From the sequence record OR885871: a DNA stretch of 64,000 nt, one strand, 5' to 3'. The notes beneath the pieces are model-generated. The model had not been told where the DNA came from, searched no databases, and saw only the letters and a list, made by a program, of their open reading frames with translations. Positions 2,520 through 10,355 of the stretch are shown here, in pieces. This DNA comes from Escherichia phage vB_EcoM_JN03. Position numbers and translations under genes: made by a program. Position 1 is the first letter of the stretch; each line of letters begins with the position of its first letter.

Positions 2520-3134
2520 ATGACGATGACAACGTTGAAGGCCATGGCCTTGTCCGTGACCTTTACCATTGCCAGCGGGAATGTGCACGCTTCCCAAAAT
2601 ACAAGTCAATGTGTTTATGATTTCTCTGAGCAACAACTTAATACGCTGGCAACTGCCTATCACATAGGCAAGACGCAAGACCTTGGTTATACTCTGGCCG
2701 CCATATCTTGGCGAGAGAGCCGCGCTGGTGAAGATGTAGTGTCAATGCGATACGGTCTCAAGGCGGCCAACATGGGAGCCTTTCAGAACAAGGTGAAGAC
2801 AGTTGGTGATCGCGAGGGTTGTAAGAATCGCAAGTGCTATGCCAATGTCGCCATCAAGTTGTTGACCGACCAAGAATATGCCGCGCAAGCCGCCCTCGAT
2901 GAGATGCAGTTCTGGCTGACCTATCACAAGCAGAATGTACGCAAGTCTCTTTCCTCTTACAATGCTGGCTTCGCCCGTAATCCCGCATCGAACGCCTATG
3001 CCGCCGACGTCGTGAAGAAAGCTAAATATCTTCAGAAATGTGTGTCCTTCAAAGGGCGTTCCATCTCTGAGGTGGATCCTCAGGTGATCGCCATGAACAA
3101 GCGCACGATAGAGAAACTGAAGAGGACAAGATAA
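2520..3134 (+). CDS. secreted lytic transglycosylase-like protein (SLT domain)
   Basis: N-terminal signal-peptide-like segment; WRESRAG, GAFQ and SYNAG resemble SLT motifs ES / GLMQ / AYNAG. Confidence 0.45.
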   Translation: MTMTTLKAMALSVTFTIASGNVHASQNTSQCVYDFSEQQLNTLATAYHIGKTQDLGYTLAAISWRESRAGEDVVSMRYGLKAANMGAFQNKVKTVGDREGCKNRKCYANVAIKLLTDQEYAAQAALDEMQFWLTYHKQNVRKSLSSYNAGFARNPASNAYAADVVKKAKYLQKCVSFKGRSISEVDPQVIAMNKRTIEKLKRTR

Positions 3135-3772
3135 TGAACATCACTCCATCCCAGACCGGATATGAACATATCTTGGTCTTCATTGCCCTACAGGGTGCGA
3201 AGGAAGGCATCATCGTATCCGAGTATTCAGGTACGGTTCGCCTTGCTGACTACGTCGCGCCGGAGGCATTCATTAAGAAGTGCATTGATGCATGGTGCCT
3301 CTATGCCCTCGGCACGTATCCTGCTCCTCCTGATGGCGAGCTGTTGTTTACCGTACCGACTCCGGCTGCTGGCGATACAGACGCGATCTTTGCCGATATG
3401 CTGGCCAAGGGGTATCTGGTGTATGACATAACTCACGATGTCTATTCCTTCACCTCCCTGAACACTGTGTTTGGGTTCACCATAACCTCTGAAGCCAACA
3501 TCCCTGACTGGGGTATCTTGGCCTGGGGTGTTGACGGCCTGGGCGCAACCTACGCAACGTCTGATGTTGGTCCTGTTCTGATTGATGAGGGTGTAACCAT
3601 GGAGCAGTACCTTGCTCAGTTCCCCCAACACAACATCACGGGTAGCGATATCATTTTGGTCCAGCCTGGCGCTGTTGCCCTCCCCCGCCTCGTGGACGGA
3701 TGGAAGCCTCAGCTGAAGGACATCATTGCAGGGATCAGGTCCCATATTCCTGTGGTGAACCCAACACCGTAA
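3134..3772 (+). CDS. hypothetical protein
   Basis: TAATG coupling to upstream gene; no recognisable motif. Confidence 0.45.
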   Translation: MNITPSQTGYEHILVFIALQGAKEGIIVSEYSGTVRLADYVAPEAFIKKCIDAWCLYALGTYPAPPDGELLFTVPTPAAGDTDAIFADMLAKGYLVYDITHDVYSFTSLNTVFGFTITSEANIPDWGILAWGVDGLGATYATSDVGPVLIDEGVTMEQYLAQFPQHNITGSDIILVQPGAVALPRLVDGWKPQLKDIIAGIRSHIPVVNPTP

Positions 3773-3806: not shown

Positions 3807-3878
3807 TTCTTCAATATCCTTCCCTATACTTCATTCCATAAGCAGTACGACACCAACTTGAAACGAAGGAACTATATT

Positions 3879-4238
3879 ATGGCTATCACCACAAAAACTG
3901 AATTGAACGCGATCCTGAAAGAAGCTGGCTTCGGTAGTATCAAACGCCAGGGCAAGGTTTTACGCGATGGCGGTAAAATCGTAAAGGGTATCATGTTGGG
4001 AAGTACTGGCCCGTTGAGCATCAGCTCCCCTCAGTATGACAATCTTCGTAAACTGGCGCGTGAACTTCTCCAAGAAGACCTCCATATCACGACGCAAGAA
4101 ACCAATTATGTGGTTTTGGAATGCAACAAATTCATCGTCAGCCTTTACATCTGCAGCACCCGCTCATATCCGGTGTCTGAAGGTTATGACCCAATGTATC
4201 TGACCCATTATGCTCAGGTTACTGTCAAAGTAAAATAA
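3879..4238 (+). CDS. hypothetical protein (N-terminus MAITTKTEL)
   Basis: RBS AAGGA 9 nt upstream of ATG 3879; ORF-track start 3858 is TTG. Confidence 0.5.
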   Translation: MAITTKTELNAILKEAGFGSIKRQGKVLRDGGKIVKGIMLGSTGPLSISSPQYDNLRKLARELLQEDLHITTQETNYVVLECNKFIVSLYICSTRSYPVSEGYDPMYLTHYAQVTVKVK

Positions 4239-4322
4239 TCAAATTCAACGGGGGGCTTCGGCTCCTCTTTTGTTTTCGCTAATTAAGGAAAACCGCACCG
4301 ATTTATTATCAGGAGAATTACA

Positions 4323-6710
4323 ATGGCCATCCCATCTTTCTTGAACTTTCTTGAAGAGTCTAAACAATTAGACGAAGCGTTTAACTCATCCCCGTATGAA
4401 TTGACATTCGGCAAGAAGAACGCTGGTGACATTTTCTTCACATTTGTTGATGAAGACGAAAAAGAATTCCGTATTCAATTCTATACCCCACAAGGTCTAG
4501 GCAAGAATGTTCGCCAAGTCTTTATCGGTCAGAAGCGTGGTTCCACATATCCCGATGCCATCGGTCGTTTCAAGAATCCAATGCGTGTTATCGCATCCAT
4601 GATTGAAGCAACAAAGCAATTCATGGCGACGCCTTTGGGGAAAACCATTGACGGCTTTGCAATTAACTTCTCCAAGAAAGCATTGGAGCGTGGTGTTACC
4701 CTCCTGCCGAAGATTATCCGTCAGTCCGGCCTGAAGCAAAAGCTCAATGTCATGGACCTGACGTATACCCCTATCCCTGATCGTGCATTCGTATGGGTTG
4801 TGCGTAAAGGCAAGGATCCTGCTCAGGTATTCGATGGTCCGAAAATGAAAGGTGTCACATGGGATGATCCGGACAAAGTCGGTGACGTCCCGGTTCAGAA
4901 CAATACTCCGGATGTGGGAGTTGTGGCTGGTTCTTCTGAAATCGAAGTCAACCGCGATGACAACGGTTGGAAACTCACCAAAGCTAGTCGTACTCAGCCT
5001 ATGCTGGTCTGGTCTGGTAAAGAACGTGGGCGGACTATTACCGCCAATATCGCACCTCACGCGGATATACCTGGGGTGTATGCTGGTAGTATCATGAACG
5101 AGAAACGGATCCGCGCTCAATCTCCAGACGCTATTGTACGCCAACTGGGATTACCGCAGATCCCTGTGAATATTCTGAATGATTTCACCAAGCAGTCGTC
5201 CATCTTCTGGAAAGAGATGACGGGGGATTCTGGAAAAATAGACATGCAGAATTTGCCAAAAACAGGATCTGTGGATGACTTACGAAATCAGGGTTATATT
5301 GCTCGCCTTCTGGGGATTGTAGACACATATGCTCCACAACAGGTCGGTATGTATGCAGGTGAAAAACTAACACGAATCGGCGCGGGCAAATATCGTACTT
5401 CGGGTGGTCTGGACATTCAGGTTTATTTCTGGGGAATTGTCAACGGAAAACTTTCTGTAGAAGTAGTATCAGATTTGTCTGGTCATGACCAACTTATGCT
5501 GGAAGGAGATGTGAAAAACGCCGCTTATGAAATAGTGGGCGCAATCTCCCGTGCAGCCGATTCTCAATTTGCTGGAGAAGTAGAATGCCGTGTGGTTCCG
5601 ATCAATGGTGCCCCATATCCGATTCAAAAAATTTCCCGTTCTCAGGGATATTCTTACGTTGATTGTGGTTCTTTCACATTGAAGATCGCTGACGCTCTGC
5701 TGAATCGGTTTACCTTGGGCAAGGCGGTCAAACTTGATCTGATGAAAGAGTTTCCTCGTACAACATTCAAAGTCCGCTATGATTGGCGTGGAAAAGATAC
5801 TCTGTTGGTTCAATCTTCCGACGAGCGTACTATCTTTGGTGAAATCAACACCAATTCCAGTGAAAATGCAGTGATCACTGCAAACATCAAAGTGCCAAGC
5901 AATGCTAAATTTTTTGGTGAAACCGTTCATGGCTTCTCTGTAGCGTGGGATTTCCAGTTCCCTGCTGGTAGCAAGTTGCAAGCCGCAAGATTCGTTACCA
6001 ACGTAACTTACGATTTTGATCGAAACAAAGCCAACATCACCACCATGTTGGCTGAAAATGGTCGAAATGTAGTAGACAGCAATGGATATGATATTTCGTT
6101 GTCTGTCAAATCAGTGCAAGATGCATTGGATGAGATTTCTCGACGCCTGAAAGACGCGGCTTCGCAACTGAGCCACCTCAGTTCATCAAACTATAACCCT
6201 AACAATCTATTCCTGAATGACATCACTGTCAGTAAATTTGGCGCAATTATGTTCCAAGACAAAGATTTGGCACAGTCCAGGAACCGCACGGCAGTCATTG
6301 ATGCTCTGGCTCGGGCTAAAGATCAGGCTGCTGGAGGTAAGAATGCAGGTGATCTGGCCACCTATGCCGAATCCATTCGTGACAGCGCTCCTAATGGACG
6401 AGATCTGGATTGGCAGGTATACACAGCCAGTAATGGTACAGTTCTGAATGTTGCTTGGGATATCACTTTCCGTCGCAATACGACCGAAGGAGCATATCGT
6501 GAATTCAAGGATCAGATCAACCGTGCCAACCAATACCTGCAAACGGTATACAACGACGCGAAATCTAAAGGCTATAATCCTACCGTGCCAAATCTCATGA
6601 CTCTTGAACGCGCTCGCCAATCCGACGAATGGGCTATGAGTAATGGCGATAGTGCATACAGTGAATATGAACAATCGCTGGGCGGTAATCTTCAGATTAG
6701 TCTGAAATAA
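4323..6710 (+). CDS. large hypothetical protein (795 aa)
   Basis: Long ORF with RBS AGGAGA; no catalytic motif recognised. Confidence 0.55.
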   Translation: MAIPSFLNFLEESKQLDEAFNSSPYELTFGKKNAGDIFFTFVDEDEKEFRIQFYTPQGLGKNVRQVFIGQKRGSTYPDAIGRFKNPMRVIASMIEATKQFMATPLGKTIDGFAINFSKKALERGVTLLPKIIRQSGLKQKLNVMDLTYTPIPDRAFVWVVRKGKDPAQVFDGPKMKGVTWDDPDKVGDVPVQNNTPDVGVVAGSSEIEVNRDDNGWKLTKASRTQPMLVWSGKERGRTITANIAPHADIPGVYAGSIMNEKRIRAQSPDAIVRQLGLPQIPVNILNDFTKQSSIFWKEMTGDSGKIDMQNLPKTGSVDDLRNQGYIARLLGIVDTYAPQQVGMYAGEKLTRIGAGKYRTSGGLDIQVYFWGIVNGKLSVEVVSDLSGHDQLMLEGDVKNAAYEIVGAISRAADSQFAGEVECRVVPINGAPYPIQKISRSQGYSYVDCGSFTLKIADALLNRFTLGKAVKLDLMKEFPRTTFKVRYDWRGKDTLLVQSSDERTIFGEINTNSSENAVITANIKVPSNAKFFGETVHGFSVAWDFQFPAGSKLQAARFVTNVTYDFDRNKANITTMLAENGRNVVDSNGYDISLSVKSVQDALDEISRRLKDAASQLSHLSSSNYNPNNLFLNDITVSKFGAIMFQDKDLAQSRNRTAVIDALARAKDQAAGGKNAGDLATYAESIRDSAPNGRDLDWQVYTASNGTVLNVAWDITFRRNTTEGAYREFKDQINRANQYLQTVYNDAKSKGYNPTVPNLMTLERARQSDEWAMSNGDSAYSEYEQSLGGNLQISLK

Positions 6711-6761
6711 GTCATAGCCCCTTCGGGGGCTAAATACATCAAAATCCTTAGGAGATCCACG

Positions 6762-7307
6762 ATGAAACCGTTTATCGAATATTTTAAAGAACAAGCTCAA
6801 CAACCGCAAACACATGGCGGCATACAAGGCAAAAGTGTAACCATCACCAAACAGGCCGACGGAACCCAATGGTGTACTGGTGCCACCGTAACCCAGATCA
6901 CTCCAGATAATCAGGCCGACATCTATAATCTGGAATTGACTAATGGCAACACCATCAAAGTGAAGCTAACTCCAGACCAGACCCACGGCATTACCCAAGG
7001 CCAAGAAGTCGTTGCCGTCCATGATGGGTTTGAATTCTTCTTCGGCAAGTCGGCTGACAAAGGTCAGGTTACTGAAACGGAAGGCTGGCGTTTCGTCGGT
7101 GACCGTGGCGCTCATATTCTGATGTATGACGCAAAAGTTGGCGGTGCCTCCACTATCCTTCGCAGTCCAACAGATCGAACCAAATTTGTTGGTGGTCTCA
7201 TCAACGGCAGAAAAATTTTGGGTAATTCCCCAGAAGAACTGGCGGCAAAATTAGGTCTTCCAAAAATTCCTGATAATTTATTAAAATCATTTTTTGGTAA
7301 AAAGTGA
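6762..7307 (+). CDS. hypothetical protein, C-terminal motif shared with upstream 795-aa protein
   Basis: RBS GGAGA; C-terminus SPEELAAKLGLPKIPDNLLKSF. Confidence 0.5.
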   Translation: MKPFIEYFKEQAQQPQTHGGIQGKSVTITKQADGTQWCTGATVTQITPDNQADIYNLELTNGNTIKVKLTPDQTHGITQGQEVVAVHDGFEFFFGKSADKGQVTETEGWRFVGDRGAHILMYDAKVGGASTILRSPTDRTKFVGGLINGRKILGNSPEELAAKLGLPKIPDNLLKSFFGKK

Positions 7308-7321
7308 TTACAAAATACAAT

Positions 7322-7349
7322 CCCCCTAAATACAGGGGGATTTTCTTTT
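7322..7349 (+). terminator. rho-independent terminator
   Basis: CCCCCT-loop-AGGGGG then ATTTTCTTTT. Confidence 0.6.
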
Positions 7350-7362
7350 AGGGGTAAATATC

Positions 7363-7716
7363 ATGGTCAATGCGAGTATATTCATCAACCGTGGACTGCT
7401 TGCTATAGCCCACTCTCATGCCCTCCACTTCGTTACAACGTCCTATGCCAAGCACAAGGCGCTCGGGGAGTTCTACGGGGAACTGGAGGACTTGCTGGAC
7501 ACCTTTACGGAAGCGTATATTGGTGCGGGAGGTATATACATTCCAGGATTCGAGAACATCAAATTGTACAATCCTGAACCGATATCGTATATCAACAGCG
7601 TGGTCATCGACGTTAATGGGATCTACAATCAGTGTGATAGTCATCTTCAAAATACGCTTGACGAAATCAAGACTCTGTGCTATCAAACGATTTACAAACT
7701 GAAGCAATTGTCTTAA
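7363..7716 (+). CDS. hypothetical protein
   Basis: ATG ORF after terminator; preferred over antisense ORF 7348-7707. Confidence 0.4.
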   Translation: MVNASIFINRGLLAIAHSHALHFVTTSYAKHKALGEFYGELEDLLDTFTEAYIGAGGIYIPGFENIKLYNPEPISYINSVVIDVNGIYNQCDSHLQNTLDEIKTLCYQTIYKLKQLS

Positions 7717-9720: not shown

Positions 9721-9866
9721 AAATACTTCAAAAATAATTTAAAAATTTATTGAAAAAGACTTTACTCTTCAATAATCATGCACTATTATAGTTCACATAG
9801 GGCGGTACACAACACCCCGCCGAATGAAAAGTGAAACGACCCAACTACATTATGAGGAATTACATC

Positions 9867-10355
9867 ATGGCTACTACCAAAACTCTGATCACCAACGGCA
9901 CCATCTCTTTTGAACTGAACACCGAAGTTGCAAAAGTTGAAATGTTCCGCATCGCTCAGGCAGCTGGCTTCACTGGTGGCAAAACTTCCTTCATGAATCT
10001 GCTGAACGGCAAAGTGAAAGCGACCAACGGCTTCACCCTGGTAGAGCAGGTTGTCGTAGACAAAGCCGTGGTTGCCAAGACTGCTGACAAGGTTGGCATG
10101 CTGAAAGACCTGGGCCATGACATCCACGTTGTCGAAGCGAACACCGAAACTTACGGCACCATCGTAGTCGGTAAAGGTCGCATTCAGCTGAACCCGCTGA
10201 ACAACGGAACCTTCTCCGTGATGGTATTCCCGAAAAAGGGTTATGACAACAGCGATATCGTGAAAGCCGCTGGCGGTGAAGCGAAATCCCAGTATGTCAA
10301 AATGGGTAAACTGAGCGCCGACGCAGTAGAAACTCTGGTGAACAAACTGGCTTAA
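9867..10355 (+). CDS. hypothetical protein (N-terminus MATTKTL), likely abundant
   Basis: RBS GAGGA 7 nt upstream of ATG 9867; preceded by partial duplicate of its initiation region; ORF-track start 9831 is GTG. Confidence 0.5.
   Translation: MATTKTLITNGTISFELNTEVAKVEMFRIAQAAGFTGGKTSFMNLLNGKVKATNGFTLVEQVVVDKAVVAKTADKVGMLKDLGHDIHVVEANTETYGTIVVGKGRIQLNPLNNGTFSVMVFPKKGYDNSDIVKAAGGEAKSQYVKMGKLSADAVETLVNKLA

Follow-up and report, generated by a model that had tools for sequence, protein, structure and literature searches.

The window analysed here is the whole 64,000-nucleotide stretch of Escherichia phage vB_EcoM_JN03 (sequence record OR885871), read 5' to 3' on one strand. It contains two adjacent genes, encoding proteins of 795 and 181 residues (hereafter the big and the small protein), that are built as mosaics of a leader, a conserved N-terminal domain (N-domain) and a shared domain of ~76–90 residues for which we use the name 'cassette A' (Table 1). 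The window comes from a Kuttervirus (Ackermannviridae): in DNA sequence this region is 92–96% identical to Kuttervirus phages such as SJ3, SeSz-1 and CBA120, and Escherichia phage vB_EcoM_JN03 has a protein with 100% identity to the 795-residue one. The CBA120 counterparts are orf111 for the big gene and orf109 for the small gene; they lie between genes for gp46/gp47-like recombination nucleases and the primase gene. Pfam contains no family for either protein, and in PHROGs the big and small proteins fall into phrog_3867 and phrog_4048, respectively, both families of unknown function.

Table 1. Features of the big and small genes and of the flanking intergenic DNA. Nucleotide positions are those of the window; residue numbers refer to the encoded protein. 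The arrow marks a candidate cut.
Feature	Residues (aa)	Position (nt)	Strand	Remarks
Terminator-like hairpin upstream of big gene		4250..4267	+	
Big mosaic virion protein	795 aa	4323..6710	+	leader, invariant N-domain, disordered linker, cassette A, variable α/β domains
Leader of big protein, MAIPSFLNFLEESKQLDE	1–18	4323..4376	+	F-x-x-F-L-x-E element; conserved [LIV]-x-E↓AFN candidate protease site
Near-invariant N-domain of big protein	19–190	4377..4892	+	
Cassette A, big-protein copy	212–300	4956..5222	+	five strands, helix 268–275, LGLPQIP turn, helix 282–300 (predicted)
Motif copy in big protein, SPDAIVRQLGLPQIPVNILNDF	267–288	5121–5186	+	
GC-rich hairpin between big and small genes	 	6715..6732	+	no T-run on + strand; followed by TAAATA-like sequence
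Small mosaic virion protein	181 aa	6762..7307	+	leader, conserved N-domain, cassette A
T4 CTS-like leader of small protein, MKPFIEYFKE	1–10	6762..6791	+	
Conserved N-domain of small protein	11–105	6792..7076	+	ends in invariant linker ...GQVTE
Cassette A, small-protein copy	106–181	7077..7304	+	76 aa, 8.2 kDa, pI 10.1
Motif copy in small protein, SPEELAAKLGLPKIPDNLLKSF	156–177	7227–7292	+	ends four residues short of C-terminus
Terminator-like hairpin downstream of small gene		7319..7342	+	also downstream boundary of cassette swap

A preliminary description of this DNA had reported that the two proteins have a 22-residue motif in common. Both copies are indeed present, with the first placed 5 nt too early (at 5116) and the remaining coordinates right. 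Pairwise BLASTP aligns the two proteins with 14/36 identities (E=8e-8), and their Smith–Waterman score of 87 compares with 36.3 ± 5.2 for 1000 shuffled sequences (maximum 61; z=9.8). The motif sequence is not of low complexity, and the pattern LG[LIVM]P.[IVL]P occurs at only these two sites when the 64-kb window is translated in all six frames. Without composition correction the similarity reaches ~77 residues; the matched stretches are residues 212–288 of the big protein and 102–178 of the small protein (~76 residues). A hidden Markov model (HMM) made from the big-protein copies alone matches the same residues of the small protein at 27–29 bits (E=5e-5 when a database of 10^6 sequences is assumed), and Foldseek aligns 87 columns between the big-protein model and an independently made model of the 181-residue orthologue from phage bering in the BFVD database. 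The shared sequence is real, but the shared unit is a domain of ~76 residues rather than a linear motif of 22.

Structure prediction places the motif within a folded domain in both proteins. In the AlphaFold2 model of the big protein, strands within residues 215–265 precede a short helix (268–275, SPDAIVRQ) and a longer one (282–300), with predicted local distance difference test (pLDDT) values of 63–84, and low-confidence linkers (181–213 and 301–306) bound the cassette on either side. The small-protein cassette, modelled alone from a 15-sequence family alignment, adopts the same topology with a pLDDT of 86 and a predicted template modelling score (pTM) of 0.76; its motif segment has block-mean pLDDT values of 88–96, which drop only at the last few residues. 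Across 15 diverse cassette copies the invariant columns are a Trp in the first strand and both prolines of L-P-x-x-P, and the Leu preceding the first Pro and one Gly are conserved in at least 90%. The resulting signature is W ... G ... L-P-x-[IVP]-P-x3-L-x2-F. Because the invariant columns are the Trp and the L-P-x-x-P prolines within the predicted fold, we regard the motif, which is the best conserved stretch of the domain, as its structural hallmark: in the models it is the conserved helix–turn–helix end (with L-P-x-x-P as the turn) of an autonomous α+β domain and not a linear signal. The earlier suggestion of an 'interaction, processing or targeting module' holds as far as a common module is concerned, but not for a free-standing peptide, since the segment forms a helix–turn–helix inside a confidently folded domain of 76–90 residues. 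The grounds on which the preliminary description would have dismissed the match, lack of conservation in homologues and restriction to low-complexity sequence, do not apply to a motif that is conserved in 15 diverse copies.

Cassette A is a previously undescribed domain family. It has no significant match in Pfam, in PHROGs or among solved folds in the PDB, and a search of 1.84 billion representative proteins with the cassette profile gave convincing matches confined to this Ackermannviridae lineage. Long repeat proteins in that search had weak per-repeat scores and were judged spurious. We also considered whether cassette A arose when the first half of the big-protein N-domain was duplicated within the protein, since with that half it has a ...PDAI.R... 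segment in common; hhalign was negative (E=0.52). Two further cassettes found at this locus, B and C, were compared with A and are handled as unrelated: the pairwise match to B is marginal (E=0.005, probability 7%) and the comparison with C gave nothing.

Copies of cassette A are found on three kinds of carrier at a single locus. The big protein has 0–2, the small protein can end in one, and the third carrier is a small gene of Agtrevirus and Taipeivirus phages whose copy is 38–42% identical. The number per genome ranges from zero to three. The first 105 residues of the small protein, leader included, always terminate in x-[TSN]-E across the family and are followed by one of at least three unrelated cassettes, A (181-residue proteins), B (189 residues, the commonest) or C (172 residues). 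Cassette C also occurs as a stand-alone protein of 79 residues with its own leader, MKGFPDFLKE↓A (Sajous1 gp216 and LIMEstone1 ORF079), and gene 181 of phage MK-13 has the layout MKGFQDFLTE, cassette A, ...NLKTE, cassette C. The big protein consists of the near-invariant N-terminal region (residues 1–190), a linker and a variable run of ~100-residue modules that are gained, lost or swapped near residues 200–300 and 653–677, giving total lengths of 689–979 residues. Among its homologues, P0093 and P0096 are missing cassette A, P0147 and P0149 have tandem copies, Vi01-type proteins have a different cassette in its place and others have both. Phage Vi01 has cassette A in neither carrier, and in FrontPhageNews the small protein has it whereas the big protein lacks it; the cassette is therefore accessory and the two copies are independent of each other. 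Two database records of the big gene have unusual structures. In the phage SJ3 record (NC_024122/KJ174318) the gene is split by the arbitrary start of the linear record and so appears twice, and the annotated 899-residue product has an extra module of ~100 residues between the N-domain and cassette A. In LIMEstone1 (L007, 3348-4944) ORF082 and ORF081 together represent a frameshifted big gene, with ORF082 ending out of frame and ORF081 beginning within the N-domain. Both parts were confirmed by mass spectrometry (MS), and the arrangement reflects either a sequencing error or a genuine split.

The boundaries of exchange can be located by comparison with the close relative Sajous1, which is ~86–91% identical in DNA sequence across this locus. 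Collinearity holds to nt 7076, the last base of the Glu105 codon, is lost over the cassette, where the two sequences are unrelated, and returns at nt 7316, at the terminator. Forty-six phage records contain the small-protein cassette with 100% identity, and in Serratia phage IME250 it is 97% identical while the adjoining N-domain is only 80% identical. Within the window the two cassette copies are ~26% identical overall; at 26–39% protein identity they have no similarity at the DNA level. Judged from these sequence relationships, cassette A is an interchangeable module that is traded between carriers and between phages.

The N-termini of the carriers resemble the signal that bacteriophage T4 uses for its internal proteins. 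Internal head proteins of the T4 type have N-terminal propeptides of ~10–19 residues. The T4 capsid targeting sequence (CTS) is MKTYQEFIAE (PMC8442874), and in the CTS of internal protein III (IPIII) positions 4 and 7 serve mainly in targeting and positions 8 and 10 in processing (PMC9026906). The small protein of the window begins with MKPFIEYFKE, its homologues with MKTFLEFFTE or MKKFSEFLVE and the third carrier with MKGFQDFLTE; the residues that matter in T4, at positions 4, 7, 8 and 10, are matched in these leaders. Among 5013 candidate open reading frame (ORF) starts of Sajous1, a strict CTS pattern was found twice against 0.07 expected. The two genes are the adjacent gp215 and gp216, both detected by MS, and a relaxed pattern adds gp214. 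The leader of the big-protein family is longer and contains the same F-x-x-F-[LI]-x-E element together with the [LIV]-x-E↓AFN candidate site; it is conserved in all family members, among them the paralogues of Vibrio phage YC and distant metagenomic homologues. AlphaFold2 predicts, with low confidence, a helix at residues 6–19 of the big leader. From sequence, the element that would act in targeting looks like the N-terminal leader and not the 22-residue motif. A protein with unrelated cargo, MK13_00182 of Shigella phage MK-13 (L008, 3969-4574, minus strand, 201 aa), is encoded at the same locus on the opposite strand and starts with MKTFQDFLTEA. Against the T4 CTS extended by one residue, which we take to be MKTYQEFIAEA, 7 of its 11 leader positions are equal and the other four are conservative; it is probably, on this likeness, a further member of the cargo set.

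Candidate processing sites occur at the joints of the small protein. Its sole [LIV]-x-E site is VTE-105, exactly at the cassette junction, and a cut there would free a 76-residue product with a computed isoelectric point (pI) of 10.1, in line with the description of T4 internal proteins as small and basic (PMC8442874). The packaged T4 protein Alt is trimmed at ITE-6 and LTE-619 (PMC5694885); VTE-105, FLTE-10 and LDE-18 are sites of the same kind. The processing sites are likely to be the x-T-E linkers at the cassette borders, as far as sequence patterns can indicate, and not the shared motif. The Sajous1 genome encodes T4-type head machinery, including a Peptidase_S77 (gp21-family) protease (1.3e-27), a T4_CASP scaffold protein (9e-45) and a Gp23 capsid protein (2e-122). 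The head genes of the present phage seem to lie outside the 64-kb window.

The N-domain of the big protein is present in 355 phage records, with two or three paralogues per genome in Vibrio phages. Three such paralogues in Vibrio phage YC (L006, 4781-6874, 8989-10737 and 12844-14742) differ in their C-terminal regions, and each has a leader with an [LI]-x-E↓A site; Ralstonia phage RSP15 has two weak matches to the domain. A Foldseek search of BFVD aligns the big-protein model with T4-like Alt proteins over ~200 columns (E=4.8e-4 to 4e-3, probability 0.97–1.0). From the length of this alignment we infer that the match falls in the N-terminal region of the model. Foldseek also matches the model to other multi-domain phage proteins with toxin-like cargo.

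Published proteomics place orthologues of both carriers in virions, in agreement with a guess in the preliminary description that the pair might be virion-packaged. In CsCl-purified virions of Sajous1, gp214 accounted for 196 spectra, which puts it in the top five proteins by representation; the orthologue of the small protein, gp215, gave 32 spectra and gp216 gave 20 (PMC10892097). Sajous1 gp214 is 91% identical to the 795-residue protein of the window. In LIMEstone1 the syntenic ORF078, 080, 081, 082 and 085 were listed as 'confirmed structural', and ORF081 was identified from 23 unique peptides; the authors remarked on the clustering but could not interpret it (PMC3296691). The paper on the headless S117 'tailocin' and a 2024 review of the Ackermannviridae hold no relevant proteomics and do not mention internal proteins.

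We lean towards the view that the carriers are head-internal cargo proteins like the internal proteins of T4, bearing interchangeable modules that include cassette A, because of the leader pattern, the T4-type core and protease in a close relative, the presence in virions, the variability and the small, basic cargo. In such a pathway the leaders would dock the carriers onto the scaffolding core, resulting in their enclosure in the prohead, and a gp21-type protease would remove the leaders, cutting the small protein after FKE-10 and the big protein after LDE-18. The protease would probably also cut x-T-E linkers such as VTE-105, and cassette A would be set free as a basic product of 8 kDa that can be compared with T4 IPI*. 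The cargo could then be ejected with the DNA. Once in the host it would act early, and an accessory role in counter-defence or host takeover is the most plausible.

Several observations weigh against a head-internal role. The cassette borders of the big protein, EIE↓V and WKE↓M, depart from the L/I-x-E rule of T4, which makes release of the cassette from this carrier doubtful. The likeness to Alt is one of fold: comparison of the family profile with residues 1–221 of T4 Alt by hhalign gave no match, and homology of the N-domain to Alt at the sequence level was accordingly rejected. MS support for the small protein comes from B-type orthologues, which have the same leader and N-domain as the A-type, and our literature search yielded no published localisation to the inside of the head as opposed to the tail or capsid surface. 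In addition, the big protein goes under the name of 'tail completion' or 'tail fiber' protein in some GenBank records. These labels, together with the abundance of the proteins in virions and the existence of variable domain strings in decoration and receptor-binding proteins, would suit external or tail-associated structural parts (tail completion, fibre or decoration), with cassette A as a structural or adhesion module and the CTS resemblance a coincidence. We consider this alternative rather unlikely. The structural names go back to automated or low-confidence annotation, and Foldseek searches of PDB and BFVD gave no significant match to a tail or fibre protein (E<=0.001), the few tail-fibre entries in BFVD having E>=1.1e-3 and probabilities of at most 0.15. 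The genes sit among replication genes, apart from the structural module, the leader pattern is statistically unexpected and limited to this locus, and the N-domain resembles packaged Alt-type proteins in predicted fold.

The remaining alternatives concern the shared sequence itself. Given its position at the C-terminus of the small protein and the location of both genes among replication genes, the 22 residues might be taken for a short linear binding motif for a shared partner, and by eye they resemble both Q-x-x-L-x-x-F-F and the 'helix-turn' of a helix–turn–helix. Neither a PIP-box-like clamp peptide (DNLLKSFF) nor a helix–turn–helix DNA-binding element (SPEELAAKLGLP) was retained, as the motif is buried in a folded domain, not in a disordered tail, and invariance falls on the prolines and a distant Trp instead of the PIP positions. 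Moreover, the motif is internal in the big protein, where the second helix runs for 19 residues, the small protein has no recognition helix after it, and both proteins are virion components; we regard such a role as highly improbable. Hardly more credible is a functionless, neutral remnant of local duplication or gene conversion, for which the adjacency of the genes and the abundant recombination at the locus could be cited. Although only ~26% identical, the two copies agree with 13 other diverse copies in their core residues, which indicates purifying selection, and they have no DNA-level similarity to each other; the small-protein cassette is also invariant in the 46 records mentioned above and is predicted to fold confidently. 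As for chance or compositional similarity, nothing speaks for it except the short length of the match first reported, and the BLASTP and shuffling statistics, the profile match and the structural match reduce its probability to a negligible level.

The proposed head-internal cargo proteins resemble the T4 internal proteins in several respects. Both have a 10-residue leader of the form M-K-x-aromatic-x-acidic-aromatic-hydrophobic-x-E and are associated with a T4-type core, scaffold and gp21-family protease, found here in the genome of a close relative. In both cases the genes lie outside the head cluster, the cargo is small and basic, the products are present in virions and variability between phages is strong; for cassette A this takes the form of absence from Vi01, one to three copies elsewhere and replacement by cassettes B and C. 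Unlike T4 internal proteins, the cargo is modular, with one cassette on at least three carriers, sometimes in tandem or mixed with other cassettes, and the carriers have conserved N-domains of their own with protease-like sites at the joints. Past the leader there is no sequence similarity to any T4 internal protein, and cleavage, head location and ejection are proposals here. T4 Alt, a packaged ADP-ribosyltransferase, is likewise a large protein that enters the head by means of its N-terminal part and undergoes trimming at I/L-T-E sites, and its family is aligned with the big protein by Foldseek; however, no ADP-ribosyltransferase catalytic domain was detected in the 795-residue protein, which has no Pfam domain, and the C-terminal domains are unrelated. 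The ejection-protein paralogues of phiKZ and SPN3US are also head proteins grouped in families with common targeting regions, and a gp21-related protease cuts them after Glu, but they are different proteins with the cleavage motif A/S/G-x-E and no detected homology. The receptor-binding modules of Ackermannviridae tail spikes, in the same phage family, provide a precedent for cassette swapping at conserved linkers, although these are external, different proteins that govern host range.

We put forward, tentatively and with less confidence than the head-internal location itself, that the Ackermannviridae possess a 'cargo locus'. Effector cassettes (A, B, C and others) would be encoded behind T4-CTS-like leaders and carrier domains as mini-polyproteins, whose x-T-E linkers would be cut within the capsid by the prohead protease, with the result that any recombined cassette is packaged and injected. 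Cassette A might then be a new family of injected counter-defence proteins, directed for example against enzymes that attack the hypermodified (5-NeOmdU) DNA of this phage family, like T4 IPI* against GmrSD. No description of such a modular cargo arrangement was found in the literature searched, including the 2024 review of the family. If true, T4-style capsid targeting of injected proteins would reach a second large phage family with uses in therapy and biocontrol (Kuttervirus, Agtrevirus, Taipeivirus and Limestonevirus), whose members would be equipped with cargo domains on a plug-and-play basis. The cassettes would be candidate anti-defence effectors that could explain differences in host range beyond those due to tail spikes, and a 10-residue tag would be at hand for loading foreign proteins into these capsids. 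The names 'tail completion' and 'tail fiber' for the big protein would be misleading and would be corrected.

Further virion proteins are encoded on either side of the two genes. Directly downstream, 7363-7716 (+) encodes a DUF5856 protein (ferritin/Dps-like and annotated 'starvation-inducible transcriptional regulator') that has no CTS-like leader; it was detected in purified virions as Sajous1 gp217, with 10 spectra (PMC10892097), and as LIMEstone1 ORF078 (PMC3296691). Upstream, 3134-3772 (+) encodes a DUF7270 protein of 212 aa whose LIMEstone1 counterpart is ORF085, confirmed as structural, and 2520-3134 (+) encodes a protein of 204 aa with a signal-peptide-like N-terminus and weak similarity to SLT transglycosylases. 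The Sajous1 orthologue of the latter, gp211, is labelled 'RegB endonuclease' and gave 31 virion spectra. The 2.5–7.7 kb stretch looks like an island of virion proteins amid replication genes. The N-domain of the small protein (6792-7076) has a sub-threshold TOBE match (E=0.01, 16.5 bits), echoing the low-confidence 'molybdate-binding' Phyre result that lies behind the 'ferrojan horse' idea of the Sajous1 authors.

Hairpins flank both genes (Table 1). The LIMEstone1 position matching the hairpin between the big and small genes is annotated as a late promoter. Two other ORFs in the window, 3858-4238 (+) and 9831-10355 (+), have the near-identical N-termini MKRRNYIM... and MKRPNYIM..., and Sajous1 gp213 begins with LKSRNYIM. 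For both ORFs this suggests a repeated upstream sequence, such as a ribosome-binding or promoter region, with the true start at the following ATG.

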